Positions 1-5,989 of a DNA stretch of 64,000 bases are shown piece after piece. Position numbers and translations under genes: made by a program. The notes under the pieces were generated by a model, which was given only the letters and a program-made list of their open reading frames with translations, did no database searches and had not been told where the DNA came from. Location of the stretch: the NCBI GenBank assembly GCA_947459825.1, contig CANHFH010000002.1, forward strand, positions 17,150-81,149. Reading direction: 5' to 3'. Every line of letters starts with the position of its first letter. Position 1 is the first letter of the stretch. Origin of the DNA: Pseudomonadota bacterium. GTDB lineage: Bacteria > Pseudomonadota > Gammaproteobacteria > Steroidobacterales > Steroidobacteraceae.

Positions 1-879
1 CGGTCCCTGTGTGCAGGCGATGGTCGTCAACAGCCGATGCTTGGACATCAGCGGCGCGTCGCCCGTGTGCATCAGCATGAAGCAGCCGGTGCCGTAGGTG
101 TTCTTGGCCATGCCGGGCTCGAGACAGGCCTGGCCGAAGAGCGCGGACTGCTGGTCGCCGGCGAGCGCGGTGAGCGGCACTTCGAGTCCGCCGATCCGCG
201 CGCGCAGGCCGTCGTCCGCCGAGGAGGGCCGTACCGTCGGCAGGCAGGCGCGCGGGATGCGCAACAGTCCGAGCAGATGCTCATCCCACTGTCCGGTACC
301 GAGGTTCAACAGAAGTGTACGGCTTGCATTGCTGACATCGGTGACATGGTGGCGGCCGCCGGAGAGCTTCCAGGCGAGCCAGCAATCGATGGTTCCGAAG
401 CAGAGCTCGCCGCGCTCGGCGCGCGCGCGGGCGCCCGGTACATGATCGAGCAGCCACGCGAGCTTGGTGCCCGAGAAGTACGGGTCGAGCAGGAGCCCGG
501 TGCGCGCCGTGACCTCCGGTTCGTGTCCGGCGGCGCGCAGCTGCGCGCAGACATCGGCGGTGCGCCGGTCCTGCCAGACGATGGCGCGCGCTACGGGCGC
601 GCCGGTGCTGCGGTCCCACAGCACCGTGGTCTCGCGTTGGTTGGTGATGCCGACGGCGGCGATGTCGGCGGGCGCGACCCCGGCGGTCTGCAGCACCTCG
701 TCGATGGTCGCCGACTGCGTCGCCCAGATCTCGTCGGCGTCGTGCTCGACCTGACCGGGCGCGGGGAAGTGCTGCGTGAACTCGCGCTGCGCGACGGCGA
801 CGATGCGGCCCGCCGCGTCGAACAGGATGGATCGCGAACTCGTGGTGCCTTGGTCGAGGGCGAGGATGTAGCGGCTCAT
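1..879 (-). CDS. glpK: glycerol kinase, N-terminal part (gene runs off the left edge)
   Basis: Reverse translation from ATG (877-879) gives [21 protein letters not shown]... The frame stays open to base 1 (...[13 protein letters not shown]). It is missing from the ORF track because there is no stop in the window. It lies 25 nt downstream of the glpD stop. Confidence 0.9.
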
Positions 880-904
880 GCGCGCGTCTCCTTGAGCGGT
901 GCGT

Positions 905-2521
905 TCAGGCGGTGCGTGAGGCGAACCAGTCTGCCACGGCCCGTGCGGCATCGGGCGACAGGTGCAGGCCGAGTTTGCTGCGGCGCCAGAGCACATCCTC
1001 GGCGCTGCGCGCCCACTCGACCTCGGCGAGGTAGGCGAGCTCGCGCGCGTACAGGCCGGGCGCGACCTCGGCACCGAGGTCGGCGAGGGCACGGGCATCG
1101 CCCAGCAGGCGCTGAACGCGGCTGCCGTAGGCGCGGGCGTAGCGCAGCGCGAGCGGCGCCGGCAGCCAAGGCCGCTCGGCACCGAGGCGCGCGACGAAGG
1201 CCGCGAATTCGTCCTCGGCCCGGCCGGTGCAGAGGCGTCCGCCGCCCGCCAGATCGCCCCCGGGCAGCGGCGCGCCGCCGGTCCAGGACGGCGCGCGACA
1301 GCCGAGCAGCGGGGCGAGCTTCGTCACGGCTTCCTGCGCCAGCGTGCGGTAGGTGGTGATCTTGCCGCCGAACACGCTCAACAGCGGCGCGGGCGCCGTG
1401 TCCATGACGAGCGCATAGTCGCGCGATACGGCGCGTGCGTCGCTGGTCTCGTCCTCGAGCAGCGGTCGTACGCCGGAATAGGTCCACACGACATCGGCCG
1501 GCGCCAAGGCCCTCCGGAAGTAGCGCCTGGCCTCGCGGCAAAGATATGCGACCTCATCGGCGTCGATGCGCGGCGCGGCGGGGTCCGCGTGGTGCTCCAC
1601 ATCCGTGGTGCCGATCAGCGTGAAGTCCGTCTCGTAGGGGATCGCGAACACGATACGGCGGTCGCTGGCCTGGAAGATGTAGGCGTACGGGTGGTCGAAG
1701 AGCTTGGGGACGACGATGTGGCTGCCCTTGACGAGCCGCAGACCGTGGCGCGCCGGACCCGGCGTGGCGAGATCGTGCAGCTGCGCGGCCCACGGCCCTG
1801 CGGCGTTGACGACGGCGCGGGCGCGCAGTGTCGTCGCCGTGGTGCCATCGGTGGCCGTCGCGTCCGTCGTCGATGTCGTCGTCGGCTGCAGCGTGGCGCG
1901 CCAGCCGCCGGCGCCGTCCGGCTCGAGCGCGCTGCAGCGCATGCGGGTGGCGATGGTGGCGCCGCGTTCGGCGGCGTCGAGGGCGTTGAGCACCACGAGC
2001 CTTGCATCGTCGACCCAGCCGTCCGAGTACTCGAAGCCGCGCGGGATCCCTTCGCGCAGCGGCGCGCCGGCCGGGTGCCGTCGCAGGTCGATGCCCTGCG
2101 AGCCCGGCAGATGCCGCCGACGGGCGAGGTGGTCGTACAGGAAGAGGCCGGCACGGATCATCCAGGCCGGGCGCAGCGAGGCGTCATGCGGCATCACGAA
2201 GCGCAGCGGCCACATGATGTGGGGCGCGATGCCGAGCAGCGTCTCGCGCTCGGCGAGCGCCTTGCGCACCAGGCCGAACTGCATGAACTCGAGGTAGCGC
2301 AGGCCGCCGTGGATCAGCTTGGTGCTGGCCGAGGAGGTGTGCGAGGCGAGGTCGTGCTGCTCGACGAGCACCACGCGCAGGCCGCGGCCCGCCGCGTCGC
2401 GCGCGATGCCGGCGCCGTTGACGCCGCCGCCGACGACCAGCAGGTCGCAGTCGGTCGGCAGCGCGGTGCTTGCGCGCTGCGCAGGTGCTGCGCTCTGAGG
2501 CCCGGGGTCGGCGCCGCTCAT
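905..2521 (-). CDS. glpD: aerobic glycerol-3-phosphate dehydrogenase (FAD)
   Basis: ORF 905..2602, with the start taken at the internal ATG 2521 (MSGADPG...) behind GAGG. It has the FAD fold motif [22 protein letters not shown] and GlpD-like [13 protein letters not shown]. Confidence 0.9.
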
Positions 2522-2528
2522 CTCGACC

Positions 2529-3455
2529 TCAATCCTTGAGGTGCCGCAGCACGGCCTCGAGCGTGACGCGGCTGACGCGGACGTTGGACTCGTCGGTGAC
2601 ACCGGCGATGTGCGGCGTCAGGAGCAGGTTCGGCACGCCGGCGAACAGCGCGCCCTGCGCGGCGTCGAGCGGCTCCTGCGCGAACACATCGAGCGCGGCG
2701 CCGCCGAGGTGTCCGCTGCGCAGCGCGGCGGCGAGCGCGGCCTCGTCCACCACACCGCCGCGGGCCGCGTTGAGGAGGATGCTGCCGCGGCGCATCGCGG
2801 CGATGCGCGCGGCGTCGAAGAGGCCACGGGTCTCGTCCGTCAGCGGCACATGGAGGCTCACGACATCGCTGCGCTGCACGAGCTCATCGAGGGTGACGCG
2901 CTCGGCGAGCTTCCACGCCGGATGGTCGGCGGGCAACAGCGGGTCGGCGGCGCAGATGCGCAGGCCGAGCGCCGCGGCGCGGGTGGCGGTCTCGCGTGCG
3001 ATGCCGCCCAAACCCACGAGGCCGAGCGTCTTGCCCGAGGCCTCGCGGCCGATGGTGCTCATGCGCGGCCACGCGCCGGCGATGACCTGCGGTGTCGCGG
3101 ACCACGCGCCGCGCAGCAGCACCAGCATCGCGGTGATCGCCCACTCGGCGACCGCGACATCGTTGGCGCCGGTGGCGGGGCAGACGGCGATGCCGCGCGC
3201 CTTGCAGGTCTCCACATCGATGTTGTCGAGGCCGACGCCGAGGCGTCCGACCACGCGCAGCTTGGGGGCGGCCTCGAGCAGCGCGCCGCGCACCTGCGTG
3301 CGGTTGCGGACGACGAGCGCGCGCGCATCGGCTAGCGCGGCGATGAGATCGGCCGGATGGTCGACGAGCTTGGCATCGTAGAGCACATCACGCCCGGGCA
3401 GCAGCTCGCGGATCGCGGCCTCGTCCATGAATTCGCTGATGACGATGTCGGCCAT
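2529..3455 (-). CDS. D-isomer-specific 2-hydroxyacid dehydrogenase (candidate SlcC-like sulfolactate dehydrogenase)
   Basis: 308 aa with the NAD motif GLVGLGGIARETA and catalytic-region motifs LLNAARGGVVDE and LLTPHIAG. It starts 9 nt after the upstream stop and ends 7 nt before the glpD start. Confidence 0.85.
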   Translation of the reverse strand: MADIVISEFMDEAAIRELLPGRDVLYDAKLVDHPADLIAALADARALVVRNRTQVRGALLEAAPKLRVVGRLGVGLDNIDVETCKARGIAVCPATGANDVAVAEWAITAMLVLLRGAWSATPQVIAGAWPRMSTIGREASGKTLGLVGLGGIARETATRAAALGLRICAADPLLPADHPAWKLAERVTLDELVQRSDVVSLHVPLTDETRGLFDAARIAAMRRGSILLNAARGGVVDEAALAAALRSGHLGGAALDVFAQEPLDAAQGALFAGVPNLLLTPHIAGVTDESNVRVSRVTLEAVLRHLKD

Positions 3456-4490: not shown

Positions 4491-4518
4491 GGGAGGTCCT
4501 GCGCGTCGCGCGGCGCCG

Positions 4519-5694
4519 TCAGGCGCTGCGGTAGAGCTTGGTCATGACGAACTCGACATGACCCAGCGCCTCGGCGGCGGTGAGCCGGCCGTTCGCCGTC
4601 TGCTCGATGCAGTCGATGAGCGCGTCGCCCGCCTGGTCGATGGTCATCTCGCGGCGCACCACGCCCGATACGTCGACATCGACATGCTCGGGCATCAAGC
4701 GCACGGTGCGCGGATTACCGGTGACCTTGATCACCGGCATGATCGGGTTGCCGATGACATTGCCCTGGCCGGTCGGGAAGATGTGCACCACATAGCCCGC
4801 GGCGGCCTGCAGCGTGCAGCACTCGGCGGCGGCCGAGGAGGTGTCCATGAAGTAGAGGCCTTGGCCGCGCGCCGGCGCCTCGGCGGGCTCCAGCACATCG
4901 ATGAACTTCACCTTCTTGCCGATCTTCTCGAGGTTGCCGAGCGCTTTCTCTTCGATGGTGGTGAGGCCGCCGGCGATGTTGCCCTTGGTGGGCTGGCTCT
5001 CGGAGAGGTCGGAGGTCTTGTTCGCCTCGATGACATCGTCCTGATAAGCCTGCCAGGTCTTCATGAACTTCTCGCGCACCTCGGGCGTCGCGGCGCGTGC
5101 CGCGGCGAGGTGCTCGGCGCCCGTGAGCTCGGAGGTCTCGCCGAAGCAGCCGTAGAGACCGTGCGGGATCAGCTTGTCGTACATGTTGCCGACGGTGGGG
5201 CAGGAGGCGAGACCGGTGGTGGTGTCGCTCTCGCCGCACTTGGCTGCGACCCACAGCTCGCTGATGTCGCACTCGACGCGCACCTGGCCCGAGGTCTGGT
5301 GCACGAATTCTTTGGCCTTGCGCGACGCGGCGGCCACGGTGGCGATGTCGCCGTTGCCCTCGATCCAGAAGCCGGCGACCGGCTTGCCGGTCTTGGCGAT
5401 GCCGTCGACGATGCGCTGCGTCCAGCCCGGCTCGATGCCGATCACGATGCAGGCGGCGACGTTCGGGTTGGAGCCGGTGCCGATCATCGTGCGGAAGTGC
5501 AGGTCGAGGTCGGCGCCGAACTGCAGGCGCCCGTAGGCGTGCGGCAGCGCGATCGTGCCCTTGATGTTGTTGGCGACGGCCTCGCAGGCGGCGTTCGAGA
5601 TGTCGTCCACCGGCAGGATGGCGACATGGTTGCGGACGCCCACGCGGCCGTTCTCGCGGCGGAAGGCCCAGATCTTGCGGTTGTGATGGCTCAT
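4519..5694 (-). CDS. UxaA-family (altronate dehydratase C-terminal-like) large subunit; SuyB-like
   Basis: ORF 4519..5739, with the start taken at ATG 5694 ([28 protein letters not shown]...). The product is about 391 aa. It contains [21 protein letters not shown] and HIFPTGQGN, which are typical of the UxaA/GarD C-terminal domain. It starts 7 nt after the small-subunit stop. Confidence 0.8.
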
Positions 5695-5701
5695 GTGCGG
5701 C

Positions 5702-5989
5702 TTACCAACGCTTGGTCTTGAGGTTGTGGACATGGACATGCTCGCCCTTGGCGACCGGCGCGACGATGCGGCCGATGTCCTGTCCGTACTTGGTCACCGT
5801 GTCGCCGACCGCGAGGTCGACGAGCGCCACCTTGTGGCCGATCGGCACATCATGGCGGGCGGTGAGGCGGAAATCGGAATTGTCCTCGGTCACGACGCAG
5901 AGCATGTCGGTGCCGGCCTTGAGGCCTTCGACCACGACCACGCCGACGTTGTCCTTGCGATCGTGCACGAGCAGTTGGGGAACGCTCAC
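5702..5989 (-). CDS. SAF-domain small subunit of split UxaA-family enzyme; SuyA-like
   Basis: ORF 5702..6049. The start is taken at GTG 5989 ([18 protein letters not shown]...) with AGGAG about 8 nt upstream. The product is about 95 aa. The SAF-like stretch [16 protein letters not shown] is present. Confidence 0.7.

Follow-up and report, generated by a model that had tools for sequence, protein, structure and literature searches.

Sulfoquinovose (SQ) is produced on a gigatonne scale, and sulfoquinovosyl glycerol (SQGro) is the deacylated head group of the plant sulfolipid. Reviews describe a two-tier breakdown, in which sulfoglycolytic bacteria excrete 2,3-dihydroxypropane-1-sulfonate (DHPS) or sulfolactate and others desulfonate, and a bacterium that houses both tiers was described as unusual in 2025. 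SQ loci of Firmicutes carry glycerol-catabolic genes, which were read as serving the use of the glycerol of SQGro (2020, PMC7491151; Eubacterium rectale, PMC11968277). Here we describe a locus that appears to combine these elements in a Pseudomonadota bacterium of the Steroidobacteraceae (assembly GCA_947459825.1, contig CANHFH010000002.1, positions 17,150 to 81,149). Within this 64-kb stretch of ~72% G+C (hereafter, the window), positions 1-5989 hold a compact block of six minus-strand genes that joins a sulfolactate lyase module to the glycerol genes glpD and glpK, and a divergent operon next to it carries candidate genes for SQ catabolism. We estimate a probability of roughly 70% that the block serves the co-catabolism of SQGro to dihydroxyacetone phosphate (DHAP), pyruvate and sulfite, as the desulfonating arm of a pathway that is complete within one organism and has become fused to the cell's own glycerol genes. 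The features on which this reading is built, with gene identities from Pfam and NCBIfam, are as follows (nt, nucleotides; aa, amino acids).

1..879, minus strand: glpK, 5' 293 codons of a gene that continues past the window (495 aa in full); FGGY_N, 244 bits
905..2521, minus strand: glpD, aerobic FAD glycerol-3-phosphate dehydrogenase, 538 aa; DAO and DAO_C domains, NF008899 at 731 bits (cut-off 360)
2529..3455, minus strand: slcC-type D-2-hydroxyacid dehydrogenase, candidate (S)-sulfolactate dehydrogenase; PF00389 and PF02826, the families of SlcC
3465..4490, minus strand: comC-type Ldh_2 dehydrogenase, candidate (R)-sulfolactate dehydrogenase; PF02615 at 320 bits, the family of ComC
4519..5694, minus strand: suyB, sulfolactate sulfo-lyase large subunit, 391 aa; GD_AH_second and GD_AH_C
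5702..5989, minus strand: suyA, small SAF-domain subunit, 95 aa, GTG start; Pfam SAF, 52% identity to Cupriavidus pinatubonensis SuyA
6025..6038, no strand assigned: candidate operator, palindrome GTCTTATATAAGAT with core TCTTATATAAGA, in the 58 nt between the divergent genes suyA and gntR
6048..6806, plus strand: GntR/HutC-family regulator (Pfam GntR and UTRA), starting 58 nt from suyA on the opposite strand
6803..7762, plus strand: PfkB kinase, candidate sulfofructose kinase; PfkB at 144 bits, 43% identity to Escherichia coli YihV over 300 aa
7806..8822, plus strand: class I DeoC/LacD-family aldolase, candidate sulfofructose-1-phosphate aldolase; PF01791, 29% identity to E. coli YihT
8836..10239, plus strand: SqvD/SftI-like isomerase, candidate SQ isomerase; weak PF02952 match
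10239..12311, plus strand: YicI-like enzyme of glycoside hydrolase family 31 (GH31), candidate SqgH-type sulfoquinovosidase; GH31 domains
12382..14739, plus strand: TonB-dependent outer-membrane receptor (TBDR); Plug and beta-barrel
14765..17689, plus strand: dctQ, dctM and dctP of a tripartite ATP-independent periplasmic (TRAP) transporter; Pfam DctQ, DctM and DctP
17650..18150, plus strand: low-molecular-weight phosphotyrosine phosphatase/ArsC-fold gene that overlaps the end of dctP and forms the far edge of the island; absent from the island-free locus L096
2529..~18150, no strand assigned: SQ/sulfolactate island of ~15.6 kb, delimited by synteny with L096

Parts of this layout are already known, namely the SlcC/ComC-SuyAB cassette with its GntR/UTRA regulator, hybrid clusters for sulfoglycolysis of the Embden-Meyerhof-Parnas type (sulfo-EMP) and a YicI-related sulfoquinovosidase clade. 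The tandem sulfofucolytic-sulfolactate lyase locus of Paracoccus wurundjeri and the sulfolactate biomineralisation cluster of Chromohalobacter salexigens (PMC12421959) share with the window a GntR/UTRA regulator, suyA, suyB and dehydrogenases of the PF00389/PF02826 and PF02615 families. Our regulator has the domain pair and the position of the one at the head of the suy cluster of P. wurundjeri, and the two dehydrogenase families are those of the characterised SlcC/ComC pair, which inverts (S)- to (R)-sulfolactate through sulfopyruvate. P. wurundjeri also couples sulfosugar cleavage to desulfonation in one organism, and no GabD or SlaB is recognisable there either (PMC12421959). The two systems differ in the sugar pathway (a sulfofucose pathway of the Entner-Doudoroff (ED) type there, a putative EMP-type SQ pathway here), in uptake (an ATP-binding cassette (ABC) system there, a TonB receptor and a TRAP system here) and in the order of the dehydrogenase genes, which is slcC-comC there and comC-slcC here, with a 3' fusion to glpD-glpK that is unreported in PMC12421959. 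Sulfo-EMP clusters, such as E. coli yih and the hybrids (PMC10665668, PMC9594981), resemble the divergent operon in their isomerase, PF00294 kinase, PF01791 aldolase and GH31 enzyme; the window, however, lacks a sulfolactaldehyde reductase or dehydrogenase and a C3-sulfonate exporter, carries a desulfonation operon instead, and has a GH31 enzyme that is YicI-like. The Firmicutes loci belong to another phylum and another sulfoglycolytic route, with DHPS or sulfolactate excreted rather than the sulfite predicted here, and in the window it is a resident chromosomal glp pair that is joined to sulfolactate lyase genes. Because these Firmicutes clusters carry glycerol kinase genes as well as genes for glycerol-3-phosphate dehydrogenase (2020, 2025), the statement in an earlier, sequence-only annotation of the window (the original prediction) that glp genes do not normally follow organosulfonate genes was too strong. 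The window GlpD and GlpK are orthologous to the proteins of a canonical glp regulon, as in E. coli (glpD and glpFK, controlled by GlpR) and in the Trinickia locus L097, but no GlpR or GlpF is encoded nearby, slcC replaces the glpD upstream region and the nearest regulator is of the GntR/HutC type. Alteromonas macleodii SqgH (PMC12780224), in turn, resembles the window GH31 enzyme in being YicI/GH31_3-related, in having neither an RWY motif nor a signal peptide, in its TBDR neighbour and in similar Arg/Lys/Phe positions, yet it operates in a dioxygenase (sulfo-SDO) pathway of marine Gammaproteobacteria and not alongside sulfo-EMP and SuyAB enzymes. In the literature we found no report of sulfo-EMP sulfoglycolysis and SuyAB desulfonation in one locus, of the physical fusion of a desulfonation operon to a resident glpDK pair, or of the wide distribution of this locus type among Steroidobacteraceae-like metagenome-assembled genomes (MAGs), and none of the papers searched names Steroidobacter together with sulfoquinovose.

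In the direction of transcription, the block runs suyA, suyB, the comC-type Ldh_2 gene, the slcC-type 2-hydroxyacid dehydrogenase gene, glpD and glpK, separated in the sequence by 7, 28, 9, 7 and 25 nt. Pfam and NCBIfam assignments and our reading of the sequence confirmed the six genes, their coordinates and their gaps as originally predicted, as did a metagenome contig (L001) that is identical in all proteins of the block and whose independent gene calls give the same starts and spacing. On this contig glpK is complete (495 aa) and last in the block, and the next gene is convergent. Shine-Dalgarno-like sequences precede suyA (AGGAG, 8 nt 5' of the GTG, with the identical 95-aa gene called on L001-L010), glpD and glpK (AAGGAGA before the ATG). 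A consensus scan, which is weak at 72% G+C, found no terminator-like site on the coding strand within the block; promoter-like sites numbered zero and terminator-like sites occurred at chance level and on the wrong strand, in scans that are uninformative at this base composition. The contention that the block leaves no room for internal promoters is therefore overstated, although the gaps behind it were observed correctly, because promoters can lie within coding sequence and the scan is weak at 72% G+C. Spacing and the one conserved operator described below suggest that the six genes form a single transcript.

We treat 4519-5989 as true suyAB because of the apparent orthology of SuyB to a protein of an hps-suy cluster and its clear gap to other UxaA-family proteins. 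Compared with annotated plasmids and chromids, SuyB has one group of relatives at 59-79% identity, including those of Paracoccus versutus (73%) and C. pinatubonensis (68%), and all others are at or below 40%. The C. pinatubonensis gene lies in an hpsN-hpsO-transporter-hpsP-suyA-suyB cluster, which is a DHPS degradation locus. The sulfolactate-lyase-like module of the original prediction thus appears to be real, with SuyB 68-73% identical to SuyB of characterised sulfolactate or DHPS degraders. In addition, the two products fit the two-subunit plan of SuyAB (a 95-aa SAF protein and a 391-aa GD_AH protein, with 7 nt between their genes), and SuyB homologues are found by the thousands at 86-96% identity, under the JGI name sulfolactate sulfo-lyase subunit beta. 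The sole match of SuyB in a PDB search was GarD. SuyAB is defined by its reaction, in which (R)-sulfolactate is split in an Fe(II)-dependent manner into pyruvate and sulfite.

To place the block among its relatives, we collected loci with a SuyB profile scan at one genome per species, which yielded 80 loci (78-100% identity) that were retrieved with 20-kb flanks and searched by tblastn with the window proteins; the nearest named genome among the SuyB matches is a Steroidobacteraceae MAG. An HpsN-type DHPS route was ruled out, as a homologue of HpsN is encoded in none of these loci. We also observed that SuyB retains 84-94% identity between organisms whose ComC, SlcC and GlpD are just 55-80% identical, and 79-88% between Alpha- and Gammaproteobacteria. 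Such extreme conservation suggests either very strong constraint or the lateral spread of a cassette. The slcC-type gene adjoins suyB in most relatives, and the Ldh_2/2-hydroxyacid dehydrogenase pair is found in most of the 80 loci. In NCBIfam, the Ldh_2 protein best matches L-sulfolactate dehydrogenase, although at 185 bits it is below the cut-off of 500, and the 2-hydroxyacid dehydrogenase best matches the phosphoglycerate dehydrogenase (PGDH) model, whose substrate is the phosphate analogue of the one proposed here. Inversion of the enantiomer by this pair would be needed because sulfoglycolysis yields S sulfolactate and SuyAB uses the R form.

The glycerol genes are bona fide, as the original prediction had them. 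GlpD exceeds its NCBIfam equivalog cut-off, and so does the full-length GlpK of L001, which is identical over the 293 aa in the window: TIGR01311 gives it 703 bits (cut-off 590) and NF000756 gives it 757 bits (cut-off 498). Over 492 aa, GlpD shares 47% identity with its E. coli counterpart and keeps the LRYLE, KGSHIVV, YSGVRPL and FGGK(I/L)TTYR motifs. These motifs hold R54/Y55, H233, R254, R317, R332 and K354, which are conserved and which we take to be the substrate-binding residues of the E. coli GlpD structure. Because GlpD is about as near to housekeeping GlpDs of Burkholderiaceae (61-64% identity; one sits in the glpR...glpD-glpK-glpF locus of Trinickia, L097) as to SQ-linked GlpDs (59-68%), there is no sign of a specialised paralogue. 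No homologue of GlpR or GlpF is encoded in the window or on L001; among the related loci, GlpF is found in none and GlpR only in those of the Aliihoeflea group.

Divergent from the block, the second operon is, by family assignment of its candidate enzymes, a putative hybrid sulfo-EMP pathway for SQ. A PF02952 isomerase accompanied by PF00294 and PF01791 enzymes corresponds to the 'hybrid' sulfo-EMP1/2 pattern described in the literature (PMC10665668; PMC9594981). The start of the pfkB gene overlaps the gntR stop by 4 nt, and its G+C content at codon position 2 is unusually high (it is rich in Ala, Gly and Arg codons). An apparent 880-nt gap 3' of gntR, produced by a strict filter on G+C at codon positions 3 and 2, was discarded, as frame analysis and translation show the PfkB kinase gene there. 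The aldolase scores 330 bits against NF009498 (tagatose-1,6-bisphosphate aldolase subfamily; cut-off 184), and its PDB matches are, in order, 8TNF, LacD and YihT, placing it nearer to tagatose-bisphosphate aldolases than to YihT; literature searches with the PDB codes 8TNF, 8T7Z and 9Q5C returned unrelated papers only. The sole NCBIfam match of the isomerase is the model of the SQ isomerase SftI, at 260 bits and below its cut-off of 700; it has no relative in the PDB, and no homologue of YihS was found. A plasmid of Deinococcus peraridilitoris carries the same isomerase-PfkB-aldolase-GH31 core together with a GntR regulator, a GabD-like dehydrogenase and an exporter. This is the classical architecture for sulfolactate excretion and it supports a core that would yield sulfolactaldehyde. 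The cluster itself (L095, plasmid pDEIPE01, 91365-101607) is a compact candidate SQ cluster of a cultured Deinococcus, located between transposases and composed of genes for GntR, the GabD-like dehydrogenase, an ABC transporter, a FucI-like isomerase, PfkB, a LacD-like aldolase, GH31 and an AEC exporter. Its GH31 is 46.6% identical to that of the window. For uptake, a TRAP system was proposed as the importer of SQ or SQGro in Roseobacter.

The GH31 enzyme scores 329 bits with YicI and 162 bits with YihQ. When aligned to E. coli YihQ it keeps the catalytic Asp residues, has no counterpart of R301 and W304 and carries Phe at Y508. In the C6-pocket loop, at the place to which the Cys-Phe pair of YicI aligns (presumably the determinant of xyloside specificity), the window enzyme has two conserved arginines (R297 and R305), and K415 and F515 are conserved as well. 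In the alignment it begins level with the cytoplasmic E. coli enzymes and has no N-terminal extension. The SqgH clade of YicI-related GH31 enzymes comprises sulfoquinovosidases that cleave SQGro, have no signal peptide and neighbour a TonB receptor (PMC12780224), and it was argued that SQGro is what intracellular sulfoquinovosidases act on in nature. A. macleodii SqgH is predicted to bind its substrate via R302, T377, K412 and F513, and in the Alteromonas cluster the GH31 gene adjoins a TBDR gene whose product was 107-fold more abundant (PMC12780224). Considering positions only, R305 (or R297), K415 and F515 of the window enzyme lie within three residues of R302, K412 and F513.

The substrate and the individual steps that we infer from these genes are the following. 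SQGro or SQ would be imported by the TonB receptor and the TRAP system, and the cytoplasmic GH31 enzyme would split SQGro into SQ and glycerol. SQ would then pass through the isomerase, PfkB kinase and class I aldolase to yield DHAP and (S)-sulfolactaldehyde, the latter of which an enzyme encoded outside the window would oxidise to (S)-sulfolactate. The SlcC- and ComC-type dehydrogenases would invert this acid through sulfopyruvate to (R)-sulfolactate, for SuyAB to cleave into pyruvate and sulfite, and GlpK and GlpD would channel the released glycerol to DHAP. In this manner all nine carbons of SQGro would reach central metabolism and the sulfur would exit as sulfite. No glycerol facilitator would be needed because the glycerol arises inside the cell. 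The original prediction had proposed a substrate that delivers glycerol and a C3 hydroxy acid at the same time, such as SQ-glycerol. The divergent SQ operon and the cytoplasmic GH31 enzyme favour that substrate, but the C3 acid would not be delivered by it, because sulfoglycolysis would make it from the sugar moiety, as sulfolactaldehyde and then sulfolactate.

The 58-nt region between the two operons contains the only copy in the window (0.1 expected) of a 14-bp site whose core, TCTTATATAAGA, is a perfect AT-rich palindrome amid DNA of 72% G+C. Most of the related gamma- and alphaproteobacterial loci have the palindrome 5' of suyA, with either type of sulfoglycolytic pathway, and in relatives it also precedes TBDR, dctP and pfkB genes; L005, L010, L025, L042, L053 and L085 are among the related loci that carry it. 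We consider it (GTCTTATATAAGAC) the likely operator of the adjacent GntR/HutC regulator, defining a putative regulon. Because both operons diverge from this one-palindrome region, expression of glpDK would follow a sulfosugar signal and not GlpR.

The six-gene arrangement is not a chance juxtaposition, because the order suyAB-Ldh_2-2-hydroxyacid dehydrogenase-glpD-glpK recurs in at least 10 other species-level genomes. More broadly, 22 of the 80 species loci encode GlpD and/or GlpK no further than 10 kb from SuyB, in several lineages and gene orders, and a linkage unique to this strain, the outcome that would have spoken against the original prediction, is ruled out. By pathway type, 13 of the 20 sulfo-EMP-type loci have both GlpD and GlpK, and 3 of the 18 sulfo-ED-type loci, about half of which encode a YihQ-type GH31, have GlpD or GlpK. 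The linkage occurs in at least five gene orders, but it reflects only about five or six independent events, because many of the 13 EMP-type cases share ancestry. The arrangements are:

suyAB-comC-slcC-glpD-glpK: many Gammaproteobacteria
the same order plus a YeiH-type putative sulfate/sulfite exporter 3' of glpK or 5' of glpD: some relatives
glpD-yeiH without glpK: close relatives
suyAB-glpD-glpK: L054
Aldedh-glpD-glpK-suyAB-comC: L022
glpK-suyAB: L021
suyAB-slcC-comC-mutarotase-glpR-glpD-glpK: Aliihoeflea and a Rhizobiaceae MAG
suyAB-comC-slcC-yeiH-MFS (major facilitator superfamily)-glpK, with a distant, non-orthologous GlpD (35%): Niveispirillum

In another species, slcC/glpD and glpD/glpK each overlap by 4 nt. 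The YeiH/PF03601 gene, a candidate sulfite/sulfate exporter, is often part of the suy operon (L005-L008, L014, L017, L009, L042). In Aliihoeflea sp. 2WW a Gfo/Idh/MocA oxidoreductase (L076, 7086-8198) takes the place of GH31, an ABC system serves for uptake and glpDK is preceded by a gene for a GlpR homologue; the oxidoreductase may be an NAD-dependent sulfoquinovosidase of the GH188 type. Besides Aliihoeflea sp. 2WW, the cultured bacteria that carry related loci are Niveispirillum fermenti CC-LY736, Iodidimonas nitroreducens Q-1 and Nitratireductor sp. XY-223.

Synteny suggests how the two halves of the block met. The closest GlpD outside the species clade (67%) is that of a Sinobacteraceae MAG (L096), in which glpD-glpK lies directly between a gene for an extracytoplasmic function (ECF) sigma factor and eptA, and the SQ island is absent. 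In the window, 18230-25545 encodes an ECF sigma factor, a Ser/Thr kinase, a nitroreductase, RraA, an epimerase and HD_4 in the order and orientation of L096 (40-77% identity), and on L001 eptA lies 3' of glpK as it does in L096. Since L096 carries glpDK alone between the same flanks, the pair is resident in the chromosome. The 158-nt region upstream of glpD in L096 has no counterpart in the window, where slcC occupies that place with a 7-nt junction. The island of ~15.6 kb thus probably arrived directly upstream of the resident glpDK, displacing its upstream region, with the direction of the insertion deduced from this comparison. On this evidence, glpDK were not recruited behind the suy genes. 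L096 also has a palindrome of its own, GCATTTTCGACTAGAAATGC, upstream of glpD (7842-8001), which may be a native glp operator that was lost in the window organism. Past window base 1, L001 carries (16352-20262, convergent with glpK) a type I dehydroquinase-family gene, absent at the corresponding position of L096, followed by eptA and a 440-aa GDSL lipase. Deacylation of sulfolipid by the lipase is conceivable in principle, and we found no evidence supporting it. The remaining genes of the window are housekeeping (rpoD, dnaG, tsaD, a degP-like gene, ribonucleotide reductase and htpG).

The residency of glpDK raises the alternative of a historical accident, in which the island landed beside glpDK, the junction was compacted later and co-transcription has nothing adaptive to do with SQ-glycerol. 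The glp genes preceded the island at this site, so the linkage is partly history and not recruitment; the pair stands alone between the same flanks in L096, with its own 158-nt upstream region and palindrome, and the window GlpD is no nearer to SQ-linked GlpDs than to the housekeeping proteins of Burkholderiaceae. An accident would hardly account, however, for a fused order that persists among species with GlpDs of about 60-68% identity, nor for the glp-suyAB linkages that arose with another gene order or in another lineage, namely in L022, L054, L021, the Aliihoeflea group and Niveispirillum, the last with a different type of GlpD. Moreover, the 22 linked loci among 80 far exceed the roughly 0.4% that we estimate for one gene pair within 20 kb of a given gene in a genome of 4-5 Mb. 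We therefore regard an accident without adaptive value as unlikely, although it is the alternative that survives best.

Besides this history of the site, other observations weigh against the co-catabolism of SQGro. The GH31 enzyme is missing, in the alignment, the Q/E-RWY sulfonate-binding motif of the YihQ type (GH31_13), and it is a candidate SqgH-type enzyme whose kinship is judged solely from published residue positions. No homologue of the aldehyde dehydrogenases GabD/SlaB (Aldedh) or of YihU is encoded anywhere in the 64-kb window, and for want of a sulfolactaldehyde dehydrogenase there the two halves of the pathway have no connecting enzyme. Nor does the window encode a sulfite exporter or a sulfite dehydrogenase. 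Most sulfo-ED-type loci that have a YihQ-type sulfoquinovosidase are without glp genes, and in L005-L008 a YeiH/PF03601 gene (14704-15765) sits in the place of glpK while glpD is kept. The organism, finally, is known from metagenomes only.

A different anionic glyceryl glycoside, such as a sulfofucoside degraded via sulfotagatose, would agree with an aldolase that passes the tagatose-1,6-bisphosphate aldolase model and is just 29% identical to YihT, with a GH31 enzyme devoid of the RWY motif and with a sulfofucolytic EMP route of PF00294 and PF01791 enzymes proposed in the literature. The kinase, on the other hand, is 43% identical to the sulfofructose kinase YihV, the only NCBIfam match of the isomerase is an SQ isomerase model, sulfoquinovosidase activity has been demonstrated for a YicI-related GH31 clade (PMC12780224), and the PfkB/DeoC pair of P. 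wurundjeri is not induced on sulfofucose. With a YihV-like kinase and an SftI-like isomerase, sulfofucose in place of SQ is not favoured, and we hold such a substrate to be improbable. The role of the six-gene operon would be unchanged under sulfofucose, because either sugar gives the same (S)-sulfolactaldehyde.

Least probable of all is a non-canonical role of the GlpD homologue, with or without GlpK, on sulfonated C3 compounds (oxidation of sulfolactaldehyde, or of DHPS, which is the sulfonate analogue of glycerol-3-phosphate): an island without a sulfolactaldehyde dehydrogenase (a gap also acknowledged for the published tandem pathway, PMC12421959), relatives that keep glpD without glpK and sulfo-ED loci with Aldedh in the post-slcC slot held here by glpD would be in its favour, but GlpD scores 731 bits against an equivalog cut-off of 360, with 47% identity to E. 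coli GlpD and its presumed substrate-binding motifs kept, GlpK too is above its equivalog cut-off, GlpD is by synteny a resident housekeeping gene, and Aldedh and GlpD, being present together in L022, L033, L042 and L046, are not alternatives. We rejected GlpD as the missing sulfolactaldehyde oxidase on the basis of its equivalog score, its housekeeping synteny and this co-occurrence. As for Aldedh itself, the gene is found in 11 related loci, directly 3' of slcC in L043, L046, L049 and L050, and in the Deinococcus cluster; a sulfo-ED locus of Caulobacter that is joined to this suy cassette has no Aldedh either, and in P. wurundjeri the gap was reported from experiments.

The co-catabolism of SQGro, as the preferred reading, reveals no new kind of enzyme or mechanism. 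What the locus and its relatives would bring together is both tiers of SQ breakdown, uptake and a glycerol branch under one regulator, in an abundant uncultured group, and they support SQ-glycerol over free SQ as the substrate that is met in nature. The locus also supplies a concrete candidate operator and regulator, and it adds independent cases to the missing sulfolactaldehyde dehydrogenase of P. wurundjeri. A more speculative extension, which we consider doubtful, is that Steroidobacteraceae of soil and freshwater and allied uncultured Gammaproteobacteria are complete single-cell mineralisers of SQGro, with their sole glycerol pathway captured by the sulfosugar regulon and sulfolactaldehyde oxidised by an enzyme from outside the aldehyde dehydrogenase family. 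If so, the sulfolactaldehyde-oxidising enzyme, which would fill the same step as the gap in P. wurundjeri, could be found by comparing loci, and glycerol use in these bacteria would be switched on by the head group of the sulfolipid and not by glycerol.

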